Assembly (NCBI GenBank): GCA_026387405.1
Contig: JAPLLV010000056.1
Span: forward strand, 25,765-89,764
DNA: 64,000 nt
Origin: Candidatus Omnitrophota bacterium
GTDB taxonomy: Bacteria; Omnitrophota; Gorgyraeia; Gygaellales; Profunditerraquicolaceae
Direction: 5' to 3'
Part shown: positions 3,841-60,360 of the stretch, one piece after another
Layout: each line of letters starts with the position of its first letter
Position numbering within the stretch: the stretch's first letter is position 1
The notes under the pieces: model-generated
What the model saw: the letters and a program-made list of their open reading frames with translations, nothing else
The model's database searches: none
What the model was told of the DNA's origin: nothing
Made by a program: the position numbers and the translations under genes

Positions 3841-5055
3841 ATGATCCGGGTCCTGGAAATCTCCAATCAAGCAGAATTAAGCGGGATTTTGCGGGAGATC
3901 GGGGTCGATCCTTATGGCATAGGTATCATGCGCCTGAAAGGAATGACGCGCCTTATCCATATCAAAGCCCTATCCAATATAACCGCAAATATCCTTAAGC
4001 AAGAAATGCTCGCCCTCGGCGCAGATGCCGCAATTGCCCGCGGCTCATTGACCGGTAAAACCAAAAGAACCGGCTGTTTGCTGATGGCCAATGATGCGCA
4101 GCTGAACCGGCTAAATGCCAAACTCAAAAATCAACCCTTTGGGCTTGGGGATATCGGGAACCGGATACGAAATGCGCTTCTGAACTACGAAAAAGATAAT
4201 TTTCTAATAGATATCGGAAGGTATAAACTGGACCTGAGCAAGTCTACCCGCGTCATGGGAGTGGTAAATCTTACGCCGGACTCTTTTAGCGGTGACGGCC
4301 TTTATACGCCATATGCCATACGCCATATGCCATACGCCGATAGAATTGTGGAATTTGCGCAAAAATTGGTAGAAGATGGGGCTGATATAATTGACGTGGG
4401 AGGTGAATCTTCCCGCCCCGGAGCCAAACCTATATCAATAAAAGAAGAGTGTTCTCGGGTTATGCCGGCGATCAAGGTTATAGCTAAAAAAATAAAGATC
4501 CCTATCTCCATAGACACCTACAAACCCGAAGTTGCCGGGCGCGCGCTTCTAAATGGCGCGGGTTTAGTAAATGATATCTCGGGTTTAAGAGATCCGGCTA
4601 TGGTTAAAGTGGTTGCCCGCTATAAAGCGGCGGTGGTGATCATGCATATGAAAGGCAAACCCTCTAATATGCAGAAAAAACCTGTTTATGAATCCCTGAT
4701 TTTTGAGATCATGGAATTCCTGGAAAATGCGATAGCCAATGCCGTATCGTGCGGCATAACCAGGGATAAGATCATTGTCGATCCGGGGATCGGCTTTGGG
4801 AAAACCCTAAGAGATAACCTGGAAATATTAAAGAACCTGCAAAGCCTTAAGACCCTGGGCAGGCCCATATTGGTCGGGCCGTCCAGAAAATCCTTTATCG
4901 GTAAAATATTGCGCAGCGGGCCTCAAGATAGGATGCCGGGCACGTTATCTGCCTGCGTATTGGCGGCTAAAAACGGTGCCAGGATCCTGCGGGCGCACGA
5001 TGTAAAAGAAGTAAAGCAGGCATTAAAGATCCTGGACGCGGTATCTGGAGCCTAA
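3841..5055 (+). CDS. folP: Dihydropteroate synthase with a roughly 120-aa N-terminal extension domain
   Basis: Pterin-binding motifs (VMGVVNLTPDSFSGDG, DIIDVGGESSRPGA, SIDTYKPEVA, VNDISG, IVDPGIGFGKT); the ftsH-folP synteny matches E. coli. Confidence 0.9.
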   Translation: MIRVLEISNQAELSGILREIGVDPYGIGIMRLKGMTRLIHIKALSNITANILKQEMLALGADAAIARGSLTGKTKRTGCLLMANDAQLNRLNAKLKNQPFGLGDIGNRIRNALLNYEKDNFLIDIGRYKLDLSKSTRVMGVVNLTPDSFSGDGLYTPYAIRHMPYADRIVEFAQKLVEDGADIIDVGGESSRPGAKPISIKEECSRVMPAIKVIAKKIKIPISIDTYKPEVAGRALLNGAGLVNDISGLRDPAMVKVVARYKAAVVIMHMKGKPSNMQKKPVYESLIFEIMEFLENAIANAVSCGITRDKIIVDPGIGFGKTLRDNLEILKNLQSLKTLGRPILVGPSRKSFIGKILRSGPQDRMPGTLSACVLAAKNGARILRAHDVKEVKQALKILDAVSGA

Positions 5056-6865: not shown

Positions 6866-7225
6866 ATGGCTATTATTGGAACCGGAGTAGACATCACTGA
6901 AGTCAGGCGCCTGCGGCAGGCAATAGAAAAATGGGGAGACGAATTCCTGAATAAAGTATTTACTTCCGCGGAGATAAAAAACGCCAAAAACCGCAGCAGT
7001 TTTTACCAACACCTGGCCGGGAGATTCGCAGCAAAAGAAGCAATATTCAAGGCCCTGGGAGATAAATCCATTACCTGGAAGGATGTCGAGATATTAAACG
7101 ACAAGGAAGGCCGGCCTTACTGCAGGATATTAAACGGCAAATCAAACAAGGTAACGGTGTGCGTCTCTATATCCCACGTAAAAAGCTATGCGGTTGCCAA
7201 TGCGGTTATTACGGAGAAAGAATAA
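6866..7225 (+). CDS. acpS: Holo-[acyl-carrier-protein] synthase
   Basis: 119 aa, MAIIGTGVDITEVRR start, 4'-phosphopantetheinyl transferase motifs. Confidence 0.9.
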   Translation: MAIIGTGVDITEVRRLRQAIEKWGDEFLNKVFTSAEIKNAKNRSSFYQHLAGRFAAKEAIFKALGDKSITWKDVEILNDKEGRPYCRILNGKSNKVTVCVSISHVKSYAVANAVITEKE

Positions 7226-8051
7226 CTCCCACAAGGGAGATTTCGGCCATGTTTTTATAGTGGCGGGTTCGGCCCGTTACTCCGGTGCGGGGGCTCTATG
7301 CTCAGAAGCAGCCATTCGTTCGGGAGCAGGATTAGTAACCTTAGGCATTCCTAAAAGCCTGAATAACGCAATGATAAAGATCAAACCTAAGGAGGTAATG
7401 ACCTTACCGCTGCCGGAAACCAAGCAAGCAACCTTAAGCATAAGGGCGTTTAAAAAGATAAAGGATTTTAGTAACAATATAGATATTCTAGCTATCGGAC
7501 CTGGTCTTTCTCAAAATAACTCAACTCAATCTTTAGTGCGTAAAATTGTGGCGAAAATTGATAAACCGATGGTTATCGATGCCGACGGCCTAAATGCTTT
7601 AGCCGGCCATCTCGGTTTTCTACTAACGACTAACGACCAACGACCAGCGACTATATTAACCCCGCATCCTGGAGAAATGGCGCGGCTATTGGGAACAACT
7701 ATAAAAAAAGTACAGTCGTGTAGAAATGAGACTGCCGTCAGATTTGCCAGAGACTACGATTGCACAGTAGTCTTAAAAGGACACCATACTGTAGTAGCTG
7801 ATTACCGGGGAAATTCATATGTCAACAATACCGGCAACCCAGGGATGGCTACTGCCGGCAGCGGAGACGTATTAACAGGGATGATAGCGGCATTCTTGGC
7901 GCAAGGAATAGAAAGCTATAGCGCGGCAAAATATGCTGTATATCTGCACGGATTAGCTGGCGACTTAGCCGCGGAAGAAAAGACACAAATTTCCTTGATT
8001 GCTTCGGATATTATTGCTAAAATCCCTGAAGCGATAAAGAAAAGCAGTTAG
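7188..8051 (+). CDS. nnr: ADP-dependent NAD(P)H-hydrate dehydratase (YjeF C-terminal / Nnr family). The start is uncertain because it overlaps acpS. Contains an in-frame heptamer-repeat insertion at 7616-7652
   Basis: HKGDFGHVFIVAGSARYSGA, GAGLVT and GSGDVLTG motifs of the carbohydrate-kinase-like YjeF_C domain. Confidence 0.8.
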   Translation: MRLPMRLLRRKNNSHKGDFGHVFIVAGSARYSGAGALCSEAAIRSGAGLVTLGIPKSLNNAMIKIKPKEVMTLPLPETKQATLSIRAFKKIKDFSNNIDILAIGPGLSQNNSTQSLVRKIVAKIDKPMVIDADGLNALAGHLGFLLTTNDQRPATILTPHPGEMARLLGTTIKKVQSCRNETAVRFARDYDCTVVLKGHHTVVADYRGNSYVNNTGNPGMATAGSGDVLTGMIAAFLAQGIESYSAAKYAVYLHGLAGDLAAEEKTQISLIASDIIAKIPEAIKKSS

Positions 8052-8804: not shown

Positions 8805-9014
8805 GTGAATTCAGGGGAGCCCCAAGAAACACTTGGGGGAATCCTGAGCCAAGCCCGCCAACTTTTTTCCGGCGGGAAGGTGCAGAGACTAAGCGCCTAC
8901 CACCTAAAACTTTAAAAAGTAACGGTGATGAGATAGTCCAAGCCTTGAGGTAACTCGAGGGCACTTGAAATCTGCTGCACTTGTGCTTCAGAGGTTCGAA
9001 TCCTCTCCTGTCCA
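8728..9014 (+). tRNA. tRNA-Tyr (anticodon GUA) interrupted in the anticodon loop by a 204-nt group I intron. Exon 1 is 8728-8763, exon 2 is 8968-9014
   Basis: Exon 1 ggacagg-ta-ccc-aagtggccaaa-ggg-g-gcaga-ctgt and exon 2 aaa-tctgc-tgcacttgtgcttc (long variable arm)-agagg-ttcgaat-cctct-cctgtcc-a. The spliced product is nearly colinear with E. coli tRNA-Tyr (CCCGAGCGGCCAAAGGGAGCAGACUGUAAAUCUGC). The spurious antisense ORF MDRRGFEPL is the classic tRNA reverse-complement signature. Confidence 0.8.
8764..8967 (+). ncRNA. Group I intron (204 nt) in tRNA-Tyr
   Basis: 5' exon ends with U (cugu|), paired to the internal guide gcag just inside the intron (P1 with a U.G wobble). The intron ends with G (cacttg|). 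The R-like element gtgcagagactaag (8881-8894) and S-like element gagatagtcc (8930-8939) form P7 (gacta/tagtc). Further hairpins at ccccaag-aaaca-cttgggg and cccgcc...ggcggg. Confidence 0.75.
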
Positions 9015-9037
9015 TTGACTTTATCTACAGAACCAAT

Positions 9038-9658
9038 ATGGAAAATATAATAAAAACAGACCGAGATGCTTCTCTTTTTATCGATTTAGCAGATAAAGAT
9101 TATTTAGCAGTCAGGTTACTTTTTGGTTGTGGTAACTGTTTTTATAATTTAGCCGCCTACCATTCTCAGCAATGCTTGGAAAAATATCTAAAAGCATTTC
9201 TTGTTCAGAAAACCAGCACTTATCTCAAAACACATAATTTGAAAGAATTAAGGGAGATGGCCGAAGCTCATAATAGCTATTTCTCTAAAGACGAGGTAAA
9301 AAAAGCTTTGGCTGAGTTTGATAAATATGACCAAGTTACCCGTTATAGCGCAGAGGCCACTTACGACCCAAATTCACAGAAAAATAAGTGCTTTGAGATT
9401 AAAGGGGTGTGGAGCTTCGGTCTTGGGTTTGGCAATATTAGAACTTTAGATAAGCTTGTTTACGAAATAAGGAGTTTAATGGACTTCGATAAATTAAAGG
9501 GAAGAAACAATCTAAAAGACATATTTAAGGAAGAGAAAAACAATTCATTTATCATGTGTTGGAAATTACCGATTCCGATAAAAAGAGTATTAACTATAGA
9601 AAATGATTATTGGGGGGGCAGGTTAGATATAAAAGTTGAGTTTGTAGAAGTCAGTTAA
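9038..9658 (+). CDS. HEPN domain protein (putative RNase / toxin-like) with an Rx5H motif
   Basis: AAYHSQQCLEKYLKAFL helix and LREMAEAHNSY (R-x5-H) characteristic of HEPN. The first 19 codons of the tracked ORF overlap the tRNA-Tyr 3' exon, so the start at 9038 is preferred. Confidence 0.55.
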   Translation: MENIIKTDRDASLFIDLADKDYLAVRLLFGCGNCFYNLAAYHSQQCLEKYLKAFLVQKTSTYLKTHNLKELREMAEAHNSYFSKDEVKKALAEFDKYDQVTRYSAEATYDPNSQKNKCFEIKGVWSFGLGFGNIRTLDKLVYEIRSLMDFDKLKGRNNLKDIFKEEKNNSFIMCWKLPIPIKRVLTIENDYWGGRLDIKVEFVEVS

Positions 9659-13413: not shown

Positions 13414-14709
13414 ATGGAAAAAATAAATATTGGCATTATCGGCTTTGGAAATGTTGGGGCGGGAGTGGTCAAGATCATACGCGAACGCGGCGCTAACTTG
13501 TCTTCAAAGATCGGCCTGCATCTTGAGATTAAGAAGATCTGCGATAAGGATACCGTGTCCAAAAGGAATGTCTCGGTAGATAAAAGCTTGATTACCAAGG
13601 ACGCGCACGAGATCATTGACGACCCGAAAATCGACATCGTGGTAGAACTCATCGGAGGCATCCACCCGGCGAGAGAGTTCATCACCCAGGCGCTTAATAA
13701 AGGCAAGAATATCGTCACTGCCAATAAGGCGCTTCTGGCCGTCTATGGCAGAGAACTCTTTGCCTTGGCAAGCGACCGCGGCAAAAATATTTATTTTGAA
13801 GCCTCGGTGGGCGCAGGGATACCCATAATCAAATCCCTGCGGGAAGGGCTAGTGGCGAACAAATTCAATAGTATCTATGGGATCGTGAACGGCACCTCGA
13901 ATTTCGTATTATCCCAGATGTCACAGCAAAACTACAGTTTTGACGAGGCATTGAGGGAGGCCAAAGAAAAGGGGTTCGCCGAAAAAGACCCGTCGCTCGA
14001 TATAGAAGGCATGGATTCCGCGCATAAATTATCCATCCTAAGCTATCTGGCCTTTGGCAGGCTTGTGGACCTCAGCGATATTTTTGTAGAGGGCATCTCC
14101 TGCGTAACCAACGCCGATATTAATTATGCCAGGGAACTCGGGTTCGCCATAAAACTATTGGCCATTGCCAAGAAAGAAAAAGATGAACTGGAACTAAGGG
14201 TGCATCCCACCCTTATACCCGAAGACCATCTTCTTTCCTCGGTGGGAGGGGTCTTCAACGCCATCTATGTTTCCAGCGACCTGGCGGGAAACCTCCTCTT
14301 CTACGGGCCCGGGGCCGGACAACTCTCTGCCGCCTCGGCTGTGGTGTCTGACCTGGTGGACTTAAGCCATGATATCAAGGCAGGGCTTTTCCGTCCCACA
14401 TTAAAGATCTCTCCGGATACCTCGATCAAGAAACTGCGTAAGATAGACGACATTGAAAGCCGCTATTATCTCCGCACCATGACCTTAGATAAACCCGGCG
14501 TCTTGGCAAAGATCGCCGGCATCCTGGCTAAATCCGGAATAAGTATCGCCTCGGTATCCCAGAAAGAGAAAGGGAGGCAGGAGGCCGTGCCTATAGTAAT
14601 GATAATCCACAGCGCAAAAGAAAAAGACATGCGCACTGCTTTAGGGACAATTAATAAATTGGATATAATCAAACAGAAGGCTGTGGCAATCAGGATCGAG
14701 GAGTTATGA
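13414..14709 (+). CDS. hom: Homoserine dehydrogenase
   Basis: GFGNVGAGV NAD-binding motif, homoserine dehydrogenase catalytic domain, C-terminal ACT domain. Internal Met at MEKINIGIIG preferred as the start. Confidence 0.9.
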   Translation: MEKINIGIIGFGNVGAGVVKIIRERGANLSSKIGLHLEIKKICDKDTVSKRNVSVDKSLITKDAHEIIDDPKIDIVVELIGGIHPAREFITQALNKGKNIVTANKALLAVYGRELFALASDRGKNIYFEASVGAGIPIIKSLREGLVANKFNSIYGIVNGTSNFVLSQMSQQNYSFDEALREAKEKGFAEKDPSLDIEGMDSAHKLSILSYLAFGRLVDLSDIFVEGISCVTNADINYARELGFAIKLLAIAKKEKDELELRVHPTLIPEDHLLSSVGGVFNAIYVSSDLAGNLLFYGPGAGQLSAASAVVSDLVDLSHDIKAGLFRPTLKISPDTSIKKLRKIDDIESRYYLRTMTLDKPGVLAKIAGILAKSGISIASVSQKEKGRQEAVPIVMIIHSAKEKDMRTALGTINKLDIIKQKAVAIRIEEL

Positions 14710-15884
14710 AAAATCACAAGTATAACGGGATTATAGAAAAATACCGCGGGTATCTTCCTGTTTCCGGTAAGACGCCGGTAATCACTCTGCAAGAAGGAAA
14801 TACTCCTCTAATATACGCCCCTTTCCTGAGTAGATTAGTCAGTGAAAGTTGCGGGGTTTACCCCCACACCAATTGGAAAAAAAAGGATATCTTTCAACCA
14901 ATTGGTGTGGGGGTATATCTAAAATATGAAGGTCTTAATCCTACCGGTTCTTTCAAAGACAGGGGCATGACTATGGCTGTTTCCAAGGCCTGCGAGCAAG
15001 GCTCAAGGGCAGTGATCTGCGCCTCAACCGGAAATACATCGGCCTCGGCTGCCGCTTATTCTGCCCGCGCCGGAATTAGATGCATTGTGCTCATTCCTAA
15101 GGGAGCGATCGCCCTGGGAAAGTTGAGCCAGGCAATAATCCACGGAGCAACGGTCCTGGCTGTTAAAGGAAATTTTGATGAAGCACTGGAACTGGTAAAA
15201 GAGGTCGCGGCAAAATATCCCATAACCCTGGTCAACTCGCTTAACCCTTTCCGCATTGAAGGACAGAAAACCGCTAGTTTCGAGATCTGCGATTATTTGG
15301 GCAGGGCTCCGGATTTCCAGGTCATGCCTGTGGGCAATGCCGGAAATATCACCGCTTATTGGAAAGGATATAAAGAATACAAAGTTCATAAGAAAATAAG
15401 GCATTTGCCTGTGATGCTCGGTTTTCAGGCCGAAGGCGCAGCGCCTATAGTGAAGGGACATCCCATAAAAAATCCGCAAACTTTAGCCACGGCCATACGT
15501 ATCGGCAATCCGGCAAGCTGGACTCAGGCAGAAGCAGCTCGAGACGAATCCAGCGGGCTTATCGATGCGGTCTCGGATAAAGAAATAATCGCTGCCTACA
15601 AACTATTAGCCCAAAAGGAAGGCGTCTTTGTGGAACCTGCTTCCGCGGCTTCTATCGCCGGCCTCTTAAAATTAGCCAGAAATAAATATTTTAAACCAAG
15701 TACCAACGACCAACCCCGCCTGCCACTTGGTACGCGGGGCGGGCAGGGACCAACGACCAAAATCGTCTGCATCCTGACCGGACATGGCTTGAAAGACCCG
15801 GACAGGGCCATAAAATCAGTTAAAGAACCAAAGATAGTAAAGCCGGAATTGAGAGCTATATTAAGGGGAATAGGCTATTTTTAG
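14706..15884 (+). CDS. thrC: Threonine synthase, with a roughly 22-aa repeat-derived insertion near the C-terminus
   Basis: PLP-lysine motif FKDRGMT and GNTSASAAAY. The insertion KPSTNDQPRLPLGTRGGQGPTTK is encoded by caacgac-type repeats at 15696-15762. Confidence 0.9.
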   Translation: MKNHKYNGIIEKYRGYLPVSGKTPVITLQEGNTPLIYAPFLSRLVSESCGVYPHTNWKKKDIFQPIGVGVYLKYEGLNPTGSFKDRGMTMAVSKACEQGSRAVICASTGNTSASAAAYSARAGIRCIVLIPKGAIALGKLSQAIIHGATVLAVKGNFDEALELVKEVAAKYPITLVNSLNPFRIEGQKTASFEICDYLGRAPDFQVMPVGNAGNITAYWKGYKEYKVHKKIRHLPVMLGFQAEGAAPIVKGHPIKNPQTLATAIRIGNPASWTQAEAARDESSGLIDAVSDKEIIAAYKLLAQKEGVFVEPASAASIAGLLKLARNKYFKPSTNDQPRLPLGTRGGQGPTTKIVCILTGHGLKDPDRAIKSVKEPKIVKPELRAILRGIGYF

Positions 15885-15954
15885 CGTATAGCGGATAGCG
15901 TTTAGTGAGCAGAAAAATTCTCGCTCTACGCTCTACGCTCTACGCTCTACGCTA
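15885..15954. repeat. Family-2 simple repeat: agcgtatagcggatagcg followed by four tandem copies of the heptamer GCTCTAC (15923-15950)
   Basis: Direct reading. Shares agcgtatagcggatag with the repeat at 60286-60360. Confidence 0.8.
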
Positions 15955-16584
15955 ATGTTAAAAAATAAGCGAATTCTAATTACCGCGGGCCCCACCTGGG
16001 TTCCCATAGACAGCGTAAGGGTAATCAGTAATATCGCGACAGGGGAAACCGGGAGGCTTTTAGCCGAAAGATTACAAAAGGCAGGCGCAAAGGTCACTCT
16101 GATTATAGGACATACGGGCTGTTCTTCTTCAAACCGCAATATCCGCATAATTAATTTTAAATTTTTTGATGACCTGCGGAAAATCCTGAAAAAAGAACTG
16201 CGCTTAACTAAATACGATTTTATTATCCATTCGGCAGCCGTTTCAGATTTTAAACCGCGAAGGACCATTAAAAACAAGATTGATTCGGCAAGACCTCGCA
16301 CTTTGAAGCTTATAGGCTTACCGAAAATCATAAAGGATATACGCTCTTTAAATCCCGAGGGGAAACTAGTGATGTTCAAGTTGGAATCGGGGGTAAATGA
16401 CACGACTCTGATTAAACGCGCCAGAAAATCCCTGCTGGCTTACCAGGCGGATTTTGTTGTAGCAAACCGCGTCTTTAGAGCGTACAAGGCATTTGTCCTG
16501 AATCATTCAAAGGTTTACTCAAAAGCCGGATCAAAAAAAGAATTGGTTAGAAAACTCGTTGAGGTATTAAAGCGGGCGAGGTGA
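15955..16584 (+). CDS. coaB: Phosphopantothenoylcysteine synthetase domain protein (CoaB-like, DFP C-terminal half)
   Basis: ILITAGPTWVPIDSVRVISNIATGETG matches the CoaB signature. Confidence 0.75.
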   Translation: MLKNKRILITAGPTWVPIDSVRVISNIATGETGRLLAERLQKAGAKVTLIIGHTGCSSSNRNIRIINFKFFDDLRKILKKELRLTKYDFIIHSAAVSDFKPRRTIKNKIDSARPRTLKLIGLPKIIKDIRSLNPEGKLVMFKLESGVNDTTLIKRARKSLLAYQADFVVANRVFRAYKAFVLNHSKVYSKAGSKKELVRKLVEVLKRAR

Positions 16585-17315: not shown

Positions 17316-18065
17316 ATGCGCAAAAGATGGTTGATCGCCGCTTTAATCATATTAACCGCTTGGCGTTGGGGCTTTGCCGGGGAAAAAGTTCCTGCCCCTT
17401 CGGGATGGGTAAATGATTTTGCCGGAGTAATCAATCCGGCGTATAAAGAAAAAATCAGCTCTTTAATTGAAGAGCTGGAGCAAAAGACAAGCTCAGAGAT
17501 AGCGGTAGTTACCATAAGCTCCATCTCGCCATATGATGAAAATTCATACGCGAGGATGCTCTTTGACAGCTGGAAACCGGGGAAAAAGGGTAAGGATAAC
17601 GGCGTCTTGATCCTTGTGGCGGTCAAAGAAAGACGCTGGAGGATCGAGACCGGATATGGAGTAGAAGGCATATTGCCCGACGGGCTCTGCGGAGAGATCG
17701 GCCGTAACCAGATGGTCCCCTATTTTAAACAAGGTGATTACGGAACAGGCCTTTACTATGGGGCCGCGGCAATAGCGCAAATTATTGCTAAAGATGCACA
17801 CGTTGTCTTAGACGTAGAAGGAAACCTCCCCGGTACACCTATAACCCAGACTCCAGGGTCGTCTATGGAAGGCATAATATTCTTTATAGTAATAATAGTG
17901 ATAATTGTTCTTACGTTGATTTCCAACCTCTTTCACGGTTACGGTCTTTTTGGCGGTGGATATTACGGCGGTGGATATGACGGAGGCGGTGGTTTTGGCG
18001 GAGGTGGATTCGGAGGATTCGGAGGAGGCGGAGGAGGCGGTGGCGGAGGTGGAGGAGGATTTTAA
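17316..18065 (+). CDS. TPM domain (YgcG/TLP18.3-like) protein with a glycine-rich C-terminal tail
   Basis: Signal/TM, TPM motifs (AVVTISS...ILVAVKERRWRIETGYG), C-terminal GGGYYGGGYDGGGGFGGGG low-complexity tail; paired with LemA. Confidence 0.75.
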   Translation: MRKRWLIAALIILTAWRWGFAGEKVPAPSGWVNDFAGVINPAYKEKISSLIEELEQKTSSEIAVVTISSISPYDENSYARMLFDSWKPGKKGKDNGVLILVAVKERRWRIETGYGVEGILPDGLCGEIGRNQMVPYFKQGDYGTGLYYGAAAIAQIIAKDAHVVLDVEGNLPGTPITQTPGSSMEGIIFFIVIIVIIVLTLISNLFHGYGLFGGGYYGGGYDGGGGFGGGGFGGFGGGGGGGGGGGGGF

Positions 18066-23119: not shown

Positions 23120-25933
23120 ATGAGCAATGAAATCCCCAAACAATATAACCCGCGAGAATGTGAAGATAAGTGGTATAAGTTCTGGGAAGAGAATAATTAT
23201 TTCTCCGCCAGGGCCAATCCCGCAAAGAAACCTTTCTCTATAGTCATTCCGCCGCCTAATGTGACAGGGATCCTGCACATGGGCCATGCCTTAAATAACA
23301 CTATCCAAGACATCCTCATCCGCTACCATCGCATGCAAGGTGAAGAGTCTCTCTGGATGCCGGGGACTGACCATGCCGGGATCGCCACCCAAAACGTGGT
23401 AGAAAAAGCCCTTGCCAAGGAAAACATCAAGCGCCAGGATTTAGGGAGGGAAAAATTCATCGAGAAAGTCTGGCTATGGAAGGAACAATACGGCTCCGCC
23501 ATCATCAGGCAGCTAAAGAAATTAGGCGCATCCTGCGATTGGTCAAGGATACGCTTTACCATGGATGAGGAATATTCCAAGGCGATAGTTGAAGTCTTTG
23601 TGCGCCTATATGAGAAGGGCCTGATCTATCAGGGAAACTACATTATCAACTGGTGCCCGCGCTGCCAGACCGCGCTTTCCGATGAAGAAGCGCCGCATAA
23701 AGAGCTGCAGGGAAATTTATACTATTTAAGATATCCTATTGTCGTTAGTCGTAAGTCGTTAGTCGTTAGTAAGGCTGGAGCAAAAGGAAGCGGAAAAAAG
23801 ACGGATGACGAATACATTGTTGTCGCAACTACCCGGCCGGAGACGATGCTCGGCGACACGGCGGTGGCGGTTAACCCCAAAGATAAACGCTATAAGCATC
23901 TTATCGGTGAGAGCATCATCCTGCCTTTAGTCAATCGCGAAATAAAAATTATCTCTGACAACAGCGTGGATGTGAAATTCGGCACAGGCGCGGTCAAAGT
24001 CACGCCCGCGCATGACCCTAACGATTATGCCTTAGGCAAAAAGCACAAGCTGGAATTTATAAACGTGATGCGTGCCGACGGACGCATGAATGAAAATTCG
24101 GGCGATTACAAAGATATGGATCGTTTCGAGGCCAGGGAGGTCATCCTGGAAGACTTGAAGGAAAAGGGATTCCTGGAGAAGGTCGAACCTCACCAGTTGT
24201 CCGCTGGACACTGCTACCGTTGCCACACCATCATCGAACCCTACCTATCCAAACAGTGGTTTGTAAAAATGAAGCCGCTGGCAAAAGAAGCGATACGGGT
24301 AGTCAAAAAGGGTAAGATCAAATTTCATCCGGAGCGCTGGACCAAGGTATACCTTAACTGGATGGAGAATATCCAGGATTGGTGCATCTCCAGACAGATC
24401 TGGTGGGGACATCGCTTGCCTGTTTACTACTGTAAAAATTGCCTGACTAACGACCAACGACTAACGACTAACGACAAGGGAGGCGTTATTGTCTCTCGCA
24501 CTAAGCCGGAAAAATGCCCGGAATGCGGTTCAACCGATATCTATCAAGACGACGATGTGCTGGACACCTGGTTTTCCAGCTGGCTCTGGCCCTTTGCTAC
24601 CTTTGGCTGGCCATTTGGCTTATCGCATATGGCAAATGGCATATCGCAAGAAAGCCATAAGCGATTAGCGATAAGCGATAAGCAAAAGGATTTAGATTAT
24701 TTCTACCCCACCTCTGTCCTCGTTACTGCCCCGGAAATCATCTTTTTCTGGGTAGCGCGCATGATCATGGCCGGCCTGGAGTTCATGCAAGACATTCCTT
24801 TTAGAGATGTTTATATCCACGGGACAGTGCGCGACACCGAAGGCAAAAAGATGTCTAAATCCCTGGGTAATATTATAGACCCGCTGGATATCATAAAAGA
24901 GTTCGGAACCGATGCCTTACGCTTCAGCCTGATATCCATTACCGCCCAGGGCCAAGACGTATTCTTGTCCAAAGAAAGATTTGAACAGGGAAGGAATTTC
25001 GCCAACAAGATCTGGAACGCCTCAAGGTTCATCCTGATGAACCTCCAACCGGAGCAAACCAAAGCCGATCTCTGTGTATTCTTCAAAAAAGAAAATTTAA
25101 GCCTGGAAAACCGTTGGATCTTAAGCCGGTTCTATTCGGTATTAAAAGAGTTAAACTCTCACCTTGACTCCTTAAAATTCAATGAAGCCGCGAATCTTTT
25201 GTATGGCTTCTTCTGGCACGAGTTCTGCGATTGGTATCTGGAAATAATCAAGGCTGATATAAAGAACCCGCAGAACCAGATAGTCATGTATAAGGTGTTA
25301 GAAAAATTTTTAAGGATACTGCACCCGTTAATGCCTTTTTTGACCGAGGAGATCTGGCAGAAATTTAACAACCAACCAACGACCAAGGACCAACGACTAA
25401 CGACCAGTATTATGATCCAGCCCTGGCCGCATGTGCAAGAGCAGATGATCGACAAGAAATATGAAGAATTGATGCAGTCGGTCTTTGATGTCATTGTAAC
25501 CATCCGGAATATGCGCTCGGAATTGGAAATACCCCTCCAGGACACCATATCCTCGACGATTTGTTCTCCCCAGAAGAAGGAACGAGAACTTTTAGCATCC
25601 TGCGCTCCGATCATAAAGAACCTGACCAAAACAGGAGAAGTGGATATCAAAGAGACATGCACGCGCGGCCCGGGACAATTCGTAATGGTCTTAAAAGACA
25701 TGCATATCGTCATCCCGCTCTCAGGGCTAATAGACATTGCTGCCCACCGCAAAAAGACCGAAGAGAAGATAGCCAAAGCTGAGGCAGAGATCAAGCGCAA
25801 AAAGGAACTGTTGGAGAATGCGAATTTCAGCAAAAATGCACCGGAAGAAATAGTAGAGAAGGAAAAGGCGAGGTTAAGCGAATTAAACGAGCTGGTAAAA
25901 AAACTAAAGGCGGTGAAAGATGCACTCCAATAA
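23120..25933 (+). CDS. valS: Valine--tRNA ligase, with four in-frame repeat-derived insertions
   Basis: HMGHAL (HIGH) and KMSKS motifs, C-terminal coiled coil. Insertions at 23741-23774, 24444-24474, 24611-24682 and 25371-25408 fall in loops that are variable in E. coli ValRS. Confidence 0.95.
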   Translation: MSNEIPKQYNPRECEDKWYKFWEENNYFSARANPAKKPFSIVIPPPNVTGILHMGHALNNTIQDILIRYHRMQGEESLWMPGTDHAGIATQNVVEKALAKENIKRQDLGREKFIEKVWLWKEQYGSAIIRQLKKLGASCDWSRIRFTMDEEYSKAIVEVFVRLYEKGLIYQGNYIINWCPRCQTALSDEEAPHKELQGNLYYLRYPIVVSRKSLVVSKAGAKGSGKKTDDEYIVVATTRPETMLGDTAVAVNPKDKRYKHLIGESIILPLVNREIKIISDNSVDVKFGTGAVKVTPAHDPNDYALGKKHKLEFINVMRADGRMNENSGDYKDMDRFEAREVILEDLKEKGFLEKVEPHQLSAGHCYRCHTIIEPYLSKQWFVKMKPLAKEAIRVVKKGKIKFHPERWTKVYLNWMENIQDWCISRQIWWGHRLPVYYCKNCLTNDQRLTTNDKGGVIVSRTKPEKCPECGSTDIYQDDDVLDTWFSSWLWPFATFGWPFGLSHMANGISQESHKRLAISDKQKDLDYFYPTSVLVTAPEIIFFWVARMIMAGLEFMQDIPFRDVYIHGTVRDTEGKKMSKSLGNIIDPLDIIKEFGTDALRFSLISITAQGQDVFLSKERFEQGRNFANKIWNASRFILMNLQPEQTKADLCVFFKKENLSLENRWILSRFYSVLKELNSHLDSLKFNEAANLLYGFFWHEFCDWYLEIIKADIKNPQNQIVMYKVLEKFLRILHPLMPFLTEEIWQKFNNQPTTKDQRLTTSIMIQPWPHVQEQMIDKKYEELMQSVFDVIVTIRNMRSELEIPLQDTISSTICSPQKKERELLASCAPIIKNLTKTGEVDIKETCTRGPGQFVMVLKDMHIVIPLSGLIDIAAHRKKTEEKIAKAEAEIKRKKELLENANFSKNAPEEIVEKEKARLSELNELVKKLKAVKDALQ

Positions 25934-30770: not shown

Positions 30771-32429
<1,659 letters not shown>

Positions 32430-32460
32430 TCGTTAGTCGTTGGTCGTTGGTTGATAGTCA
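32430..32460. repeat. Heptamer tandem repeat (TAGTCGT/TGGTCGT x4), i.e. the reverse complement of the ACGACTA/CAACGAC family
   Basis: tagtcgttagtcgttggtcgttggttgatagtc directly after the groEL stop. Confidence 0.75.
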
Positions 32461-34326: not shown

Positions 34327-35487
34327 ATGGCAGAGTGGATAGGTATAGGAAAACGCGGCAGAAGGTGCTACGGGTTTGACGAAGTAGCGCTGGTGCCGGG
34401 AGCGCAGACGGTTAACCCGGCTGAGGTTGATACCAGCTTTAAGATCAATGGGAAGAGATTCGAGATCCCTATTCTGGCAGCAGCCATGGACGGGGTTGTA
34501 GATGTAAAATTTGCCGTGGAGATGTCCAAGCTAGGGGGAATCGCGGTCTTAAACCTCGACGGCGTGCAGACCCGCTATGAAAATCCCGATGCCGTGCTGG
34601 AAAAAATCTCCAAGGCCAACCCTCAAGAAGCCACTACGCTGATACAGTCAATTTACACCACTCCCATAAAGGAAAAACTGGTGGGAAAGAGGGTAAAAGA
34701 GATAAAAGCCAAAAAAGGCACTGCCGTAGTCAGTTGTATCCCGGCCAACGCGGAAAAATTCGCTAAGCTCGCGGTAAACGCGGGAGCTGACATATTTGTT
34801 ATCCAATCCACGGTCACCACTACCAAACACATATCCCATCAATATAAAAGCCTGGATTTATTTAAGTTCTGTAAAAAAACACCTATTCCTGTCATTCTCG
34901 GCAACTGCGTAACATATGAAACTACCCTTGAATTGATGGATACAGGTTGCGCCGGACTACTCATTGGTATCGGACCGGGGGCTGCCTGCACTACCCGCGG
35001 AGTCTTAGGAATAGGCGTGCCGCAGGTCACTGCAACTGTAGACGCGGCCGCAGCCCGAGATTTTCATTTTAAACGCAGTGGAAAATACGTGCCTATTATT
35101 ACTGACGGCGGAATGAACCGAGGCGGAGACATCTGCAAGGCCTTTGCTTCAGGAAGTGACGCGGTAATGATCGGCTCCAGCTTTGCCCGGGCAAAAGAGG
35201 CTCCGGGAAGAGGATATCACTGGGGCATGGCTACCTCCCACATGAACCTTCCCCGCGGCACCCGTATTTACGTAGGCTCAACCGGCTCCTTAAAAGAGAT
35301 CTTATTCGGGCCGGCAAAAGTAGATGACGGTTCGCAAAACCTTATGGGCGCTTTAAAGACATCCATGGGGTCCTTAGGGGCGCAAAATATCAAAGAGATG
35401 CAAAACGTCGAGATCATCATCGCGCCTTCAATCCAGACCGAAGGAAAAATCTTCCAGGTAGGACAAAGGGTAGGAATGGGAAAATAG
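34327..35487 (+). CDS. guaB: IMP dehydrogenase / GMP reductase family protein lacking the CBS subdomain
   Basis: GIGPGAACTTRGVLGIGVPQVTA catalytic-loop signature; 386 aa; immediately upstream of guaA. Confidence 0.75.
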   Translation: MAEWIGIGKRGRRCYGFDEVALVPGAQTVNPAEVDTSFKINGKRFEIPILAAAMDGVVDVKFAVEMSKLGGIAVLNLDGVQTRYENPDAVLEKISKANPQEATTLIQSIYTTPIKEKLVGKRVKEIKAKKGTAVVSCIPANAEKFAKLAVNAGADIFVIQSTVTTTKHISHQYKSLDLFKFCKKTPIPVILGNCVTYETTLELMDTGCAGLLIGIGPGAACTTRGVLGIGVPQVTATVDAAAARDFHFKRSGKYVPIITDGGMNRGGDICKAFASGSDAVMIGSSFARAKEAPGRGYHWGMATSHMNLPRGTRIYVGSTGSLKEILFGPAKVDDGSQNLMGALKTSMGSLGAQNIKEMQNVEIIIAPSIQTEGKIFQVGQRVGMGK

Positions 35488-35528
35488 CACGTAGCAAATG
35501 GCTAATGGCAAATAGAAGGAAGGTATAA

Positions 35529-37070: not shown

Positions 37071-37231
37071 ATTAGCAAATAGCACGTGGCGAATAGCAAA
37101 TAGCCATAACACAATCTTTCTGATAAATTTATAAATTTTTTATTTTTGCTTTCCGTGCTAGCGTCCTAAGCTTTACGCTATTAGCCATTTGCCATACGCT
37201 ATTAGCCATTTGCTATTAGCCATAAGCCATC
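37071..37231. repeat. Spacer built from inverted arrays of agcaaatagc / gctattagccatttgc motifs flanking an AT-rich centre. A related motif sits at 35488-35525
   Basis: attagcaaatagcacgtggcgaatagcaaatagccat on the left and gctattagccatttgccatacgctattagccatttgctattagccataagccat on the right. Confidence 0.7.
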
Positions 37232-40200
37232 ATGCCTCGTTCAGAATTCGTCCACCTACACCTGCATACCCAATACAGCCTCCTTGACGGCGCCTGCCGC
37301 ATCCCGGAATTATTAAGCCTAGCCAACCAATATAAAATGGATTCACTGGCTATTACCGACCATGGAGCAATGTTCGGGGCCATCGAATTCTACCTGGAAG
37401 CCCAAAAAGCGGGGATAAAACCGATTATCGGCTGCGAGGCCTATGTCGCGCCGAAAAGCCGCTTTGATAAAACCGGATCAGGCATTGACGAGGCATCCTA
37501 TCACTTTATACTCCTTGCCAAAGACGAGGCCGGTTACCACAACCTGATGAAGCTGGTATCCATCGCGTACCTGGAAGGTTTTTATTACCGTCCGCGCATT
37601 GACAAAGAGTGCCTGGCGCAGCATTCCAAGGGACTTATCGGCCTGACTGCCTGCCTGAAGGGTGAGATCCCGTCCCTGATCAGGGAAAAACGTTTTAACG
37701 ATGCCTTAAAAGAAGCGGACAATTATTTAAACATCTTTGGCAAGGGCAATTTCTACCTGGAGGTGCAAGGCAACTCCATCCCTGAGCAAAGAATAGTTAA
37801 CGAAGGACTGATACGCATTTCTAAAGAATTACACATCCCGCTTGTGGCCACCAATGACGTGCATTACCTAAAAAAGGAGCACGCCTCAAGCCACGAGGCG
37901 CTTTTGTGTATCCAGACCCAGACCACGCTTGACGACCCTAACCGCATGCGCCTGCAAACAGACGAATTCTATTTTCAATCACCGGAGGAGATGAAAGCAC
38001 TCTTCAAAGACCTGCCGGAAGCGATCGCCAATACCCTGGAGATCGCCCAGCGCTGTAACCTGGAGTTGGATTTTTCCCAGATACATTTGCCTAAATATAC
38101 GCCTCCCAACGGCCAGGACAAAGAAGACTACCTCAAGGACCTCTGCGCGGGAGGGCTGAAAAACCGTTTCCCGGAAGCCGCACCGGAAATTAAGGAACGC
38201 CTGGAATACGAATTAAAGATGATCAAGAATATGGGTTTTATCAGCTATTTCCTGATCGTCTGGGATTTTATTCATTACGCTAAAAGCAAAAATATACCTG
38301 TGGGACCGGGGCGCGGTTCAGCCGCGGGAAGCCTGGTGAGTTATCTTTTAGGTATTACCGATATCAATCCTTTAAGTTATGGCCTACTCTTTGAGAGATT
38401 CCTTAATCCTGAACGCTTAGGCCTGCCGGATATCGATATAGATTTCTGTTACGAAAGAAGGCAGGAGGTCATTGATTATGTGACCCAGAAATACGGCCGC
38501 CAGAACGTCGCCCAGATCATCACCTTCGGGACCATGCAGGCCCGCGCCGTGTTGCGCGATGTCGGCCGGGTCATGGGCATAGCCTACGCGGATGTTGACC
38601 GTATTGCCAAGATGATACCCCCGGACCCTAATATCACCCTAAAGGACGCGCTTGAATCAGAAGCGGAAATCAATAACCTCTACAAGAACGACCCCCAGAT
38701 AACAAAACTTATCGATACCGCGCTCTCCCTGGAAGGATTGAACCGTCATGCCTCAGTGCACGCCGCAGGGGTAGTCATCGCGGACAAACCGCTGGATAAT
38801 TACATGCCCCTGTTTAAGACCGGAGACGACCAGATCACCACCGGCTACAGCATGGGGATGCTCGAAAAGATCGGCTTATTGAAAGTGGACTTTCTGGGAT
38901 TAAGGACACTCACTGTCATTGACGAAACCCTAAAATTAGTCAGGCGCACCCGCGGCATAGAAATAGACCTGAAAAATCTTTCTCTCGAAGACTCTAAGAC
39001 CTACAAGCTTCTTGCGAATTCGCAAACAATCGGGGTATTCCAGGTAGAAAGTTCCGGGATGCGCGACCTCTTAAGAAAACTGGAACCCAGCCATTTTGAA
39101 GATATCATCGCGCTGCTGGCACTTTACCGCCCGGGGCCTATAGGTTCGGGGATGCTCGATGACTTCATGAAACGTAAACACAACCAGATTCCCATCAAAT
39201 ATGAACATCCGAAGTTAGAGCCCATTCTCAAGGAAACCTACGGTATAATGGTATACCAGGAGCAGATCATGCAGATCGCATCAAGCCTGGCAGGCTTCAG
39301 CCTGGCCCAGGCAGATATCCTGCGTAAGGCCATGGGCAAAAAGATACCCGAGGTAATGGAGAAACAGCGTAATATTTTTATCTCCGGCTGCGTGAATAAC
39401 GGTATAAAAGAAATCACTGCCTCCAAGATATTCGATCTCATCGAATATTTCTCGGGGTACGGCTTCAATAAATGCGTTGTTGGCTCTACAAAAATAATTT
39501 CTGGAGAAAATGGAGAGCGTATCACAGTAAAAGACTTATTTAGCAACAGGCAGCTGGCCAAAACTACATTCAGCTGCCAGGAAAATTTGAAAATCGTCAA
39601 AACCAACATAAAAGATGTGGTTTATAATGGGGCGAAACCGGTATACCGGCTTCAAACATGCCTCGGCAGAGAAATAGTAGCCACCTCTAATCATCCTTTA
39701 TTTACTTTTAAAGGCTGGAAAAACCTCGGTGATTTACGCATCGGGGAACGAATCGCATTGCCGCGGATCATACCTCTAGAGACCGACAAACAGTGGGAAC
39801 CGCATAAAATAATTGTTTTAGCGGGAATAATCTCTGAAGGAAATACTTGCCATCCTTCCGGGTTTTATTTTTATAATAATAGCGAGACGCTGGTAAAAGA
39901 CTATGTTGAGAACTTGCGTAAGTTTAACAATACAATCCCAAAAATCTATAAAAGAAGGGGGCGTTTTGAGGTATACGCGGGCACAGGCAAAGTCACCAGA
40001 TTTTCCAAAAACCAAATCCCCTGGAATAAACAAGGTTCCTTGACCACTACTACTTTTTATAAATGCGGGGCAAGGCTATGGATAGAAGAATTGGGCCTAG
40101 ACTATAAAAAGGCGAGTGATAAATTTATCCCTCCGGAGCTATTTTCCTTGGAGAATAAACAAATAGCCTTATTCCTGGGTAGGCTTTGGTCAGGAGACGG

Positions 40201-42022
40201 ATTTGTTTTTGGCAAAAACAACTCTATACCTTTTTACGCAAGCTCCTCCAGTAAATTATGCCAACAGATACAGGACTTATTGCTTAGGCTTAATATAGCA
40301 AGCCGTTTAAGCACAAAAAACTTTAAATATAAGTATAAAGGAATCAAGAAAGACGTGCCCGGTTTTACCCTACACCTTTTTGGGAGGGATAGCATAACCA
40401 GATTCATCCAGCTTATCTGTCCTTTTATTATCGATAAAGACGAACAGATCTCACATCTACGTAATTACTACGATAAAGCTTCTGATAATAGTGAATCAAA
40501 AGATACCCTGCCTCCCGAAATAAAGGAGATCGTGAAGGAAGAAAAAGATAAATTCGGCTTGACTTGGAAAGAATTAGAAACAAGGTCCGGAGTTTCAATG
40601 AAGGAATTTTACGGCGCGGACCATCCTAAGAAAAAAGGATTCCGCCGTTATACCATCTTGCGCTTGGCGCGCTTCCTTGAGTCCGAGAGACTATTAAGGT
40701 TTGTAAACTCGGATATACTATGGGATAGAGTTAGTTCGGTTGATTATGTTGGCAGGGAAGATACCTATGACATAGAAATCGAGGGGATCCATAACTTCAT
40801 TGCCAATGGCATAATAGTACACAACTCACATTCGGCCGCCTATGCCATGATCTCTTACCGCACCGCGTATCTAAAGGCGAATTTTCCCGTGGAATTCATG
40901 ACCGCGCTCTTGACCTCAGAACGCGACAATACCGATAAGATCGTAGAATACGTCAATGAGGCCCGGCACATGAACCTTGAGGTACTTCCTCCGGATATAA
41001 ATGAAAGCGAATCCCTGTTTAAGGTTGTAGACCAAAAGACCATCCGCTTCGGGCTGCTGGCAGTAAAAAACGTGGGGCAGGGTGCGGCAGAATCCATTGT
41101 CCAGGCCCGGCAAAACGACGGCAAATTTCTTTCCTTGCAGGACCTCTGCAAACGGATAGACCTACGACTGGCAAACCGCAAGGTCTTGGAAAGCCTGATC
41201 AAGTGCGGGGCCATGGATTATTTTAAGATGCCGCGGGCACAGATGGTCGCCGGATTAGACGGCATATTAGAACAATCCTCAAAGATACAGCGTGACCGCG
41301 CCAAAGGCCAACTGTCATTCTTCGACCAGGCGTTCAAAGAGAATGGTTTCCGCCAGAGCATAAACGACCTGCCCAAGGTACACGAATGGCCGGAGCCGCA
41401 GGTCCTGGCCTTTGAGAAAGAGATACTCGGGTTCTACGTTTCCGGCCACCCGTTAGCCCGTTATGCCGGCCAGCTTAAACGTTTTAGCTCCACATCTATA
41501 CCGGAATTATCGCGGCATAAAGACGATGAAGAGATAAAATTAGTAGGACTTATCTCTAAGATCAAACAGACCCTTACCCGCGCCAAGCAGGAAAAAATGG
41601 CCATCCTGAAACTGGAAGACCTGGAGGGCTCCGTAGAAGCCCTGGTCTTTCCCCAGGCATACCAAAAAGTTTCCCGCTATCTTTTGGCAAGCACGGTAGT
41701 CCTGGTCAGGGGAAGGCTCAACCTGAAAGAAGATACGCCTAAGATCATCATAAATGACCTGTTCCCGGTGGATGAAATTTATAAAATGATCTCCAGCATA
41801 AATATCAACCTGTCCGGCATAAGGGAAAATCTCTTTACCAGCCTAAAGGAGGTCCTTTGCGAAAATAGGGGGAAAATCCCTATATATATGCACCTGGATA
41901 CGTCCACGCGTTCGCGCATCCATCTCGTGGTGGGCGATGGGCTTTTTGTCGAGCCGAGCGAAAAACTGATCCAGGATATAGAAACTCTTTTAGGCGAAGA
42001 CCGCCTATCTTTAATACTCTAG
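37232..42022 (+). CDS. dnaE: DNA polymerase III alpha subunit, interrupted by an in-frame intein
   Basis: PHP domain HLHLHTQYS, polymerase core and OB domain. The ORF is 1596 aa, and is 1145 aa without the intein. Confidence 0.95.
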   Translation: MPRSEFVHLHLHTQYSLLDGACRIPELLSLANQYKMDSLAITDHGAMFGAIEFYLEAQKAGIKPIIGCEAYVAPKSRFDKTGSGIDEASYHFILLAKDEAGYHNLMKLVSIAYLEGFYYRPRIDKECLAQHSKGLIGLTACLKGEIPSLIREKRFNDALKEADNYLNIFGKGNFYLEVQGNSIPEQRIVNEGLIRISKELHIPLVATNDVHYLKKEHASSHEALLCIQTQTTLDDPNRMRLQTDEFYFQSPEEMKALFKDLPEAIANTLEIAQRCNLELDFSQIHLPKYTPPNGQDKEDYLKDLCAGGLKNRFPEAAPEIKERLEYELKMIKNMGFISYFLIVWDFIHYAKSKNIPVGPGRGSAAGSLVSYLLGITDINPLSYGLLFERFLNPERLGLPDIDIDFCYERRQEVIDYVTQKYGRQNVAQIITFGTMQARAVLRDVGRVMGIAYADVDRIAKMIPPDPNITLKDALESEAEINNLYKNDPQITKLIDTALSLEGLNRHASVHAAGVVIADKPLDNYMPLFKTGDDQITTGYSMGMLEKIGLLKVDFLGLRTLTVIDETLKLVRRTRGIEIDLKNLSLEDSKTYKLLANSQTIGVFQVESSGMRDLLRKLEPSHFEDIIALLALYRPGPIGSGMLDDFMKRKHNQIPIKYEHPKLEPILKETYGIMVYQEQIMQIASSLAGFSLAQADILRKAMGKKIPEVMEKQRNIFISGCVNNGIKEITASKIFDLIEYFSGYGFNKCVVGSTKIISGENGERITVKDLFSNRQLAKTTFSCQENLKIVKTNIKDVVYNGAKPVYRLQTCLGREIVATSNHPLFTFKGWKNLGDLRIGERIALPRIIPLETDKQWEPHKIIVLAGIISEGNTCHPSGFYFYNNSETLVKDYVENLRKFNNTIPKIYKRRGRFEVYAGTGKVTRFSKNQIPWNKQGSLTTTTFYKCGARLWIEELGLDYKKASDKFIPPELFSLENKQIALFLGRLWSGDGFVFGKNNSIPFYASSSSKLCQQIQDLLLRLNIASRLSTKNFKYKYKGIKKDVPGFTLHLFGRDSITRFIQLICPFIIDKDEQISHLRNYYDKASDNSESKDTLPPEIKEIVKEEKDKFGLTWKELETRSGVSMKEFYGADHPKKKGFRRYTILRLARFLESERLLRFVNSDILWDRVSSVDYVGREDTYDIEIEGIHNFIANGIIVHNSHSAAYAMISYRTAYLKANFPVEFMTALLTSERDNTDKIVEYVNEARHMNLEVLPPDINESESLFKVVDQKTIRFGLLAVKNVGQGAAESIVQARQNDGKFLSLQDLCKRIDLRLANRKVLESLIKCGAMDYFKMPRAQMVAGLDGILEQSSKIQRDRAKGQLSFFDQAFKENGFRQSINDLPKVHEWPEPQVLAFEKEILGFYVSGHPLARYAGQLKRFSSTSIPELSRHKDDEEIKLVGLISKIKQTLTRAKQEKMAILKLEDLEGSVEALVFPQAYQKVSRYLLASTVVLVRGRLNLKEDTPKIIINDLFPVDEIYKMISSININLSGIRENLFTSLKEVLCENRGKIPIYMHLDTSTRSRIHLVVGDGLFVEPSEKLIQDIETLLGEDRLSLIL
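39473..40825 (+). mobile_element. Intein (451 aa) with a LAGLIDADG homing-endonuclease domain, inserted at the FNK|SHSAAYA site of DnaE
   Basis: N-terminal Cys block CVVGSTKI, two LAGLIDADG-type blocks (KIIVLAGIISEGNT and IALFLGRLWSGDGFV), C-terminal IVHN followed by Ser +1. The flanks GYGFNK / SHSAAYAMISY are contiguous in uninterrupted DnaE proteins. Confidence 0.9.
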
Positions 42023-60285: not shown

Positions 60286-60360
60286 TCTTAGCGTATAGCG
60301 TAGAGCGTATAGCGGATAGACCTATACGCTAAACGCTATCCGCTAAACGCTAAAAGAAAG
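60286..60360. repeat. Family-2 simple repeat / imperfect palindrome built from TAGCGTATAGCG and CGCTAAACGCTA units
   Basis: ttagcgtatagcgtagagcgtatagcggatag-acc-tatacgctaaacgctatccgctaaacgctaa. Shares agcgtatagcggatag with 15885. Confidence 0.75.

Follow-up and report, generated by a model that had tools for sequence, protein, structure and literature searches.

Heptanucleotide repeat arrays carried in frame by the valyl-tRNA synthetase gene of an Omnitrophota bacterium

A 64-kb stretch of a metagenome-assembled Candidatus Omnitrophota genome (the window; all window counts below cover these 64 kb only) contains a gene for valyl-tRNA synthetase (ValRS), valS, whose reading frame carries tandem repeats of a 7-nt unit at four sites. 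What are repeats of a non-triplet unit doing inside an essential enzyme, and how did they get there? An earlier note, made from the letters of the window, had read the four inserts as a slippage-generated or mobile heptamer microsatellite resembling the Rickettsia palindromic elements. The core of that reading is supported here, with the amendment that the insert is palindromic at one site only. The valS arrays belong to a few unit families that are scattered through this genome, usually as 4–5 units. Within genes they occur only in frame, at loops that tolerate insertions and deletions; perfect arrays gain or lose whole 7-nt units between near-identical genomes, and the array at a given loop is replaced by an unrelated array between close relatives. 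The arrays are probably heptanucleotide simple-sequence repeats, single or in inverted pairs, which are shaped by slippage, tolerated in frame, and behave like Rickettsia palindromic elements.

The valS product is 100% identical to the deposited Omnitrophota ValRS P0001 and matches the ValRS of Thermus thermophilus (1GAX) with E = 7e-219. Arrays were called with Tandem Repeats Finder, and our own pattern and lag scans agree. Five period-7 arrays are found at the four valS sites, where the earlier note had placed them (Table 1); every one is in frame, and the inserts, of 13–24 codons, are stop-free. The peptides quoted in that note are all present in the 937-aa product. The TAACGAC family, in one orientation or the other, occupies three of the sites. 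Site 2 lies between the invariant pairs C438xxC441 and C466xxC469; the earlier note had put one insert between the two CxxC pairs of the zinc knuckle. Site 3 differs from the others in having two arms. The left arm is built of ATATCGC, ATATGGC, and AAATGGC units and is the approximate reverse complement of the right arm, in which the units follow in the order GATAAGC, GATTAGC, GATAAGC, GATAAGC (Tandem Repeats Finder, 24652–24683, 4.6 copies). An Rfam scan gave no known RNA family at any array.

The positions of the inserts were compared with an alignment of 22 Omnitrophota ValRS sequences (the query and 21 orthologues of 874–980 aa, 71–87% identical to the query over aligned positions). All four segments stand opposite gaps in the shortest orthologues P0104, P0107, and P0101 (874–876 aa). 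The T. thermophilus enzyme has gaps opposite sites 1 and 3 and is shorter at sites 2 and 4. As orthologues without the inserts exist, the inserts are dispensable. The valS sites, and likewise those of two other genes of the window, folP and nnrD, coincide with indel-prone loops in the alignments. The earlier note had placed the valS inserts in variable surface loops by comparison with Escherichia coli; the insertions stand against T. thermophilus ValRS and the 21 orthologues, and the surface location of the loops is deduced from the indel positions alone. An AlphaFold2 model of ValRS from the 22-sequence alignment (mean pLDDT 57, pTM 0.44) is too poor to place the inserts. A 42-aa idealised query for the hairpin-encoded peptide gave no protein match.

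A heptamer array passes through all seven codon registers within three units, so a unit that contains TAA, TAG, or TGA must meet a stop. For 26 in-gene arrays of the window and its relatives, the perfect consensus array was built and translated in the frame of the gene. A stop would be expected in 12 of them, and in each of the 12 a single base departs from the consensus, precisely within the stop codon (TAA to CAA or TTA; TAG to AAG, TCG, or CAG; TGA to CGA). Among the other codons, 52 of 250 are off consensus (enrichment at stop codons, Fisher p = 2e-8). In the arrays at 23741 and 24445 (sites 1 and 2), removal of the stop is the sole departure from a perfect repeat: a GTCGTAA copy converts the would-be TAG to AAG in the former, and a CAACGAC copy converts the would-be TAA to CAA in the latter. 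The same site-1 codon, AAG in the window, is TCG in the relative L001. The GATTAGC copy of site 3 likewise turns TAA into TTA. Since the stops are removed by one-base variants, the arrays are translated; the repair of stops together with the universal preservation of frame argues against splicing or bypassing and indicates that repeat DNA came under coding constraint. The proposed tolerance of in-frame arrays in an essential gene is thus borne out by stop-removing variants exactly where the perfect repeat gives a stop. An intein, an intron, or a bypassed segment is ruled out by the length of 13–24 codons, the lack of splicing motifs, the stop-free frame, and the stop-repairing substitutions.

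The unit length of seven stands out across the window. In a lag scan, period 7 gives 11 segments, every other period from 4 to 12 gives 0–2, and shuffled sequences give none. The pattern TAACGACTAACGAC, with up to two mismatches, is matched 11 times against 0.26 expected. Tandem Repeats Finder reports 14 period-7 arrays of 2.7–7.3 copies, of which 10 span 4.3–5.0 units; all preserve frame where they lie in genes. Counted as arms, eight fall in 5.5 kb of spacer and eight in 58.5 kb of coding DNA, a density about 10 times higher in spacers.

Table 1. Positions of valS, of the period-7 arrays in the window, and of the site-2 region in two relatives with a split valS
Feature	Position	Strand	Repeat units	Remarks
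valS (valine--tRNA ligase, 937 aa)	23120..25933	+		Host gene of four in-frame repeat inserts
valS site 1	23741..23770	+	GTCGTTA x4.3 (Tandem Repeats Finder)	Reverse complement of TAACGAC family; peptide VVSRKSLVVS
valS site 2	24445..24475	+	TAACGAC x4.4 (Tandem Repeats Finder)	Between two CxxC pairs
valS site 3, hairpin element	24618..24683	+		Left arm 24618-24648, short loop, right arm 24653-24683; peptide LSHMANGISQESHKRLAISDK
valS site 4	25375..25406	+	CAACGAC/CAAGGAC/TAACGAC x4.6 (Tandem Repeats Finder)	Peptide PTTKDQRLTT
folP array	4304..4338	+	ATACGCC/ATATGCC x5	In frame; folP = 3841..5055
nnrD array	7622..7651	+	TAACGAC x4	In frame; NAD(P)HX dehydratase gene, 7188..8051; peptide LTTNDQRPA
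thrC remnant array	15702..15758	+	TAACGAC family	In frame, split by nested insertion; thrC = 14706..15884
Spacer hairpin	15880..15958		Left arm TAGCGTA/TAGCGGA, right arm CGCTCTA x4.6	Between thrC and DFP-family (PF04127) gene
GTCGTTA-family array	32426..32459		GTCGTTA family	Begins in groEL stop codon; intrinsic-terminator-like hairpin next
Single spacer array	35485..35513		AAATGGC/TAATGGC	Between IMPDH-family (PF00478) and GMP-synthase-type (PF00117 + PF00958) genes
Inverted array pair	37073..37232			Spacer between GMP-synthase-type gene and dnaE
Spacer hairpin	60286..60356		TAGCGTA x4.4 + reverse complement x4.7	
Site-2 region of split valS, L142	3835-4119			Relative, not window
Site-2 region of split valS, L143	3925-4126			Relative, not window

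Outside valS, three genes of the window hold in-frame arrays. The folP array belongs to the GCCATAT/ATATGGC family, as does the left arm of site 3, and adds 7 residues in comparison with solved dihydropteroate synthases. In nnrD a stop is removed by a CAA variant, and the array adds 5 residues relative to TM0922. The thrC array is unbroken in L001 (LTTNDQQPTT); in the window it is split by a G+C-rich, in-frame insertion of 36 nt (15714–15749, PRLPLGTRGGQG), which is absent from L001. This nested insertion is not a repeated family in the window: a gapped-pattern search found none, and a 10-mer scan found one short match (2831). A separate, codon-multiple class of coding repeat is seen at 17952–18059, where period-9, -15, and -18 arrays and a GGA-rich tract are located at the 3' end of an open reading frame (ORF; 17316..18065) that belongs to the TPM-phosphatase family by synteny with L001.

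In the spacers, the earlier note had seen the same sequence families as in valS. This holds for the array at 32426–32459 (GTCGTTA), which is conserved in L001, and for the pair at 37073–37232 (ATGGC/GCCAT, as in the left arm of site 3), which consists of TAGCAAA units at 37073–37104 and GCCATTT/ATTAGCC units at 37174–37232 with an A+T-rich stretch between them; the array at 35485–35513 is also of the ATGGC/GCCAT family. The hairpins at 15880–15958 and 60286–60356, however, belong to a different heptamer family (TAGCGTA/TAGAGCG). The right arm of the former is a perfect CGCTCTA array (100% matches); the latter is flanked by genes for a class II aminoacyl-tRNA synthetase and pyruvate phosphate dikinase.

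Arrays thus come in two forms. Sites 1, 2, and 4 of valS are single arrays, and single arrays have no secondary structure (fold z −0.2 and +1.1). The inverted pairs form long hairpins with mismatches at 7-nt intervals. The predicted RNA fold of the site-3 element has an energy of −29.5 kcal/mol (z −5.7), and the spacer hairpins at 15880..15958 and 60286..60356 have −33.3 kcal/mol (z −4.2) and −33.2 kcal/mol (z −5.4), respectively. In-gene hairpins of relatives reach z values of −6 to −10.

Comparison with relatives, in whose loci period 7 is also over-represented, shows that one loop can hold different heptamer arrays in different lineages. L001 (86% protein identity) has the site-1 array and the site-3 hairpin in common with the window. 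At site 2, both L001 and L003 have an ATATCGC/GATAAGC hairpin in place of the (TAACGAC)4 of the window, and at site 4 their inserts are unrelated to the window array. The same ValRS loops hold other lineage-specific units: GAAGGAC, TAGTCCA and its complement, and AGTCCAC in L004; CAGCTGT/GCTGACA in L007; CACCCTT and GGCCCAC in L003; and, in addition, GGAGACA. One family may take several sites of one gene (GATAAGC twice in L001; GAAGGAC twice and TAGTCCA twice in L004). Around the valS gene that encodes the shortest ValRS (L006, 874 aa), no period-7 array is found in 22.6 kb. Members of ValRS protein clusters of at least 90% identity differ in having or lacking a whole insert at a given loop. 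In L127, L128, and L129, which share 95–97% nucleotide identity, the arrays of sites 2 and 3 are swapped for unrelated ones, with locally raised divergence in the flanks, and this looks like allelic recombination or error-prone repair. Outside valS, the spacer between thrC and the DFP-family gene holds a 4+4-unit hairpin in both the window and L001, with units that differ in both arms (ATATCGC/GATAAGC in L001).

A second kind of in-frame insert was observed in Omnitrophota ValRS, encoding ...SP.GTVP... from a palindrome of the GGGACAGTC/GGGACTGTCCC type. It is found in L003 at 2843–2900 (valS site 4) and in the proteins P0006, P0013, P0087, and P0145, and it is present or absent between proteins with 98.4% identical alignment columns.

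Changes in unit number are seen directly in one ValRS cluster. L142, L143, and L144 are 99.93–100% identical over about 2.77 kb outside a perfect (GCAGCCT)n array at site 2. The array is in frame in L144, 7 nt shorter in L143, and 14 nt shorter in L142, as expected of slippage, which the earlier note had put forward. In the shorter alleles valS is broken into two ORFs, one of 474 or 444 aa and one of 380 aa. These alleles are a genuine frameshift in an essential gene or else an error; their misassembly is unlikely because the k-mer used in assembly is much longer than the arrays. A unit that brings no stop into the sense frame can remain perfect and hence slippery, and in the window the stop-repair variants interrupt the arrays and leave at most two perfect units in a row. 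The earlier note had named frame-breaking repeats elsewhere in the genome as a refutation of its reading that would point to misassembly: such repeats are found in L142 and L143, where an error is not separable, and there are none in the window.

The hairpin of site 3 is also found in other places. The exact 28-mer of its right arm, GATAAGCGATTAGCGATAAGCGATAAGC, occurs in 12 metagenome contigs. A hairpin of about 72 nt, with ATATCGC and GATAAGC arms and a purine-rich loop, lies in frame at valS site 3 in L130; in L135 this site has the right arm alone. The element is located at site 2 in L137, with a variant at site 2 of L130, and it is in frame in the gene for queuine tRNA-ribosyltransferase (TGT; L131, PF01702) and in that for an LpxL/ELM1-type protein (L139). 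GATAAGCGATTAGCGATAAGCGATAAGC is found in non-coding or long-array contexts as well. The occurrence of one hairpin at valS sites 2 and 3 and in two further genes agrees with the mobile side of the earlier reading and is evidence of copying between sites. At the filled sites inspected, neither target-site duplications nor conserved termini were seen, and no transposase is found among the annotated ORFs of the part of the window that was scanned. The element therefore does not qualify as a miniature inverted-repeat transposable element, which its inverted arms might have suggested.

The TAACGAC unit reaches well beyond Omnitrophota. In species-representative genomes, (YAACGAC)3 occurs in at least 119 stretches. 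Among the matches listed, about half are Acidobacteriota (Terriglobia) by record title, often as inverted pairs within 100 nt, which suggests that this phylum is very rich in heptamer arrays; the other phyla include Omnitrophota, Planctomycetota, Gemmatimonadota, Bacteroidota, Cyanobacteria, and Patescibacteria. The 891 kb of these stretches listed contain 265 period-7 arrays against 0–25 arrays for each of the other periods from 4 to 12. In Acidobacteriota and Bacteroidota, some (YAACGAC)3 arrays are embedded in conserved enzymes, within the Pfam domains of MnmG, of peptidase U32, of a MiaB-like radical SAM enzyme, and of SpoU. The same heptamer units are present in 18 and 15 viral contigs. 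Horizontal transfer is not inferred from this distribution: heptamer-rich genomes are many, any unit would be expected to recur among them, and the recurrence of one unit does not on its own speak for transfer.

We return to the explanation that we consider probable, slippage-shaped repeats, selfish or neutral, that are tolerated in frame. Replication slippage would create and homogenise the arrays, and strand switching would give the inverted pairs. Recombination or some copying step would carry whole arrays to new sites or between alleles. Selection would then retain those insertions that keep the frame, lack stops, and fall in permissive loops, and the insert peptides would be passengers set by the DNA repeat rather than selected protein features. 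Several observations weigh against this account. The −7 and −14 nt alleles are known from assembled sequence and could be sequencing or assembly errors. The narrow array size (4–5 units) and the recurring 4+4 hairpins are not predicted by free slippage. Slippage by itself cannot account for one element in several unrelated genes, and the partly scanned window showed no copying machinery. The account leaves unexplained that five of the eight coding arms of the window sit in valS (binomial p = 1e-5). In the arrays shared with L001, third-codon positions are conserved more often than those of the remaining valS sequence (28 of 29 compared to 595 of 784, p = 0.003), which hints at nucleotide-level constraint or recent exchange. 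Lastly, the same unit is found in distant phyla and viral contigs without a known vector.

Alternatively the arrays, or at least the hairpin pairs, could be non-autonomous mobile elements moved by a dedicated enzyme with specificity for the hairpin of 7-nt period (REPIN/RAYT-like, or a mover of the Rickettsia elements), with slippage as secondary noise. This is possible, although we are doubtful of it. In its favour, an element of about 72 nt is found with one and the same internal order of units in four or more protein contexts and also outside coding DNA, and arrays are uniform in size and architecture; the clustering of one family at several sites within one gene, the presence or absence of whole arrays between proteins more than 90% identical, and the spread of arrays across phyla and into viral contigs point the same way. 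The missing target-site duplications and conserved ends, and the lack of a transposase-like gene among the annotated ORFs of the scanned part of the window, do not. At one locus, moreover, units vary freely between lineages while the architecture stays constant, a pattern more in keeping with turnover in place than with a fixed element that inserts, and the swapped arrays have divergent flanks, as expected of allelic recombination.

An adaptive role of the arrays, be it a reversible on/off switch of valS by 7-nt slippage or a selected regulatory or structural function of mRNA hairpins or of the peptides in ValRS, is very unlikely. A non-multiple-of-three unit within a reading frame is the hallmark of phase-variable genes, and in two samples the assembled consensus is a frameshift allele, a different one in each; but valS is an essential housekeeping gene, whereas contingency loci are usually surface or restriction-modification genes, and the interruption of the window arrays by variant units lowers slippage. 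Contingency-type length variation, which the earlier note had left open, is accordingly retained in part: unit number does vary in relatives, but the out-of-frame alleles break an essential gene, and there is no sign of a selected switch. The enrichment of arrays in valS, the unusual conservation of their synonymous sites, and the strong hairpins within the mRNA could speak for a role of the RNA or peptide. Against it, the peptides are wholly different between lineages and fully set by the repeat unit, insert-free orthologues exist, and the same arrays occur in many unrelated genes and spacers. A bolder version, that heptamer slippage makes valS reversibly frameshift-prone and that ValRS-off cells are a growth-arrest or persistence state, would explain both the −7 and −14 nt consensus alleles in two samples and the enrichment in valS; we give it little credence.

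Assembly or sequencing artefact can be dismissed as an explanation of the repeats with near certainty, in spite of the metagenome-assembled source and the frame-breaking unit-number differences of L142 and L143: the arrays, of at most 35 nt, are far below read length and assembly k-mers, frame is kept in every window array, homologous arrays occur in independent assemblies of other samples (L001; L002 and L003, with an identical protein), and stop-removing variants are not an expected product of artefact; misassembly is ruled out on these grounds.

Slippage-shaped heptamers have precedents. In the summary of Mrazek et al. 2007 given in PMC4679880, heptanucleotides are the commonest long simple-sequence repeat in repeat-rich bacteria, and polymerase slippage was proposed as their cause (see also PMC4692102). 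Known examples are GGGAATC of Xanthomonas and GGGGAYT of Nostoc, for which a G-quadruplex has been proposed to account for the preference for four units (PMC4692102), and TAACTGA of Beggiatoaceae, with 2–6 copies and a few in-ORF cases, mostly at protein ends (PMC4679880). The Omnitrophota arrays are alike in their tandem 7-nt units, the many dispersed arrays of about 2–6 copies with about four preferred, the mostly intergenic location with occasional inverted pairs, the sporadic occurrence across phyla, and slippage as the proposed generator; in both, the forward units close all three reading frames. They differ in host and in units (TAACGAC, GATAAGC/ATATCGC, TAGCGTA, and GCCATAT). Because these units have no G-tracts, the G-quadruplex account is not applicable to them. 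Several arrays are built into the core of a single essential enzyme, not into protein termini or hypothetical ORFs, their stops are point-repaired, and the same loops are re-occupied by other units across the phylum. The arrays are not members of the cyanobacterial STRR sensu stricto, as the host is Omnitrophota and the units are others; those units, attributed to Mazel et al. 1990, are reportedly CCCCAGT, TTGGTCA, or CAACAGT in heterocystous cyanobacteria.

For palindromic insertions that keep the frame of housekeeping genes, the Rickettsia palindromic elements are the classic example (Ogata et al. 2000, 2002; PMC10969869). Both systems place a palindromic repeat in frame in unrelated housekeeping genes, where it gives rise to an extra peptide, in Rickettsia at fold-compatible positions and in ValRS at indel-prone loops, and neither has a known associated transposase. 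The Rickettsia elements are about 100–150 bp in length and form defined sequence families without tandem heptamers, whereas the Omnitrophota element is about 72 nt with 4+4 heptamers. The Omnitrophota arrays vary by whole units and coexist with single arms, and there is no sequence relationship between the two. With the contingency loci of Haemophilus, Neisseria, and other bacteria, the arrays share a non-triplet unit within an ORF whose gain or loss shifts the frame, as in the relatives; they differ in the essential housekeeping host, in being short and mostly imperfect, and in showing no evidence of selected switching. The tandem repeats of Borg elements, which reportedly give rise to disordered protein regions, are alike in being fast-evolving nucleotide repeats in ORFs that make new hydrophilic protein segments. 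The in-ORF repeats of Borgs are said to be perfect, with unit lengths divisible by three; with a 7-nt unit, by contrast, three units give one 7-residue peptide period and stops need repair. No description of in-frame heptamer arrays of this kind in Omnitrophota was found in the literature searched, the coverage of which was partial.

The window has other features as well. A tRNA-Tyr(GUA) gene with a long variable arm (8727–9015) has its anticodon loop interrupted by a 204-nt group I intron (Rfam RF00028, 82 bits, match 8694–8960); the two exon halves are found by ARAGORN in intron mode. In bacteria, the known tRNA hosts of group I introns are those for Leu, fMet, Ile, and Arg, and tRNA-Tyr may be an unusual one. 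The 3' end of the tRNA gene is overlapped by a gene for a HEPN-domain protein (8981–9658) and its 5' part by an ORF (8139–8804) with no Pfam match. In dnaE (DNA polymerase III alpha subunit, 37232–42022), an intein with a LAGLIDADG homing endonuclease domain spans residues ~759–1198 (Pfam).

The case joins heptamer repeats and protein-coding palindromes, with repaired stops, phylum-wide turnover, and visible slippage in one essential enzyme, and so links two separate literatures, that of heptanucleotide simple-sequence repeats and that of protein-coding palindromes of the Rickettsia type. It is a natural case in which repeat DNA of a non-coding type has been turned into protein sequence in the core of an essential enzyme, and the steps are visible in sequence: insertion at permissive loops, one-base stop repair, turnover between close relatives, and frame-breaking slippage. 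In practical terms, such inserts can split gene calls in metagenome assemblies. They also mark the insertion-tolerant loops of class I synthetases and explain the length scatter of ValRS (874–980 aa) among orthologues of about 70% identity. The phenomenon may be common in uncultured phyla such as Omnitrophota, Acidobacteriota, and Bacteroidota.

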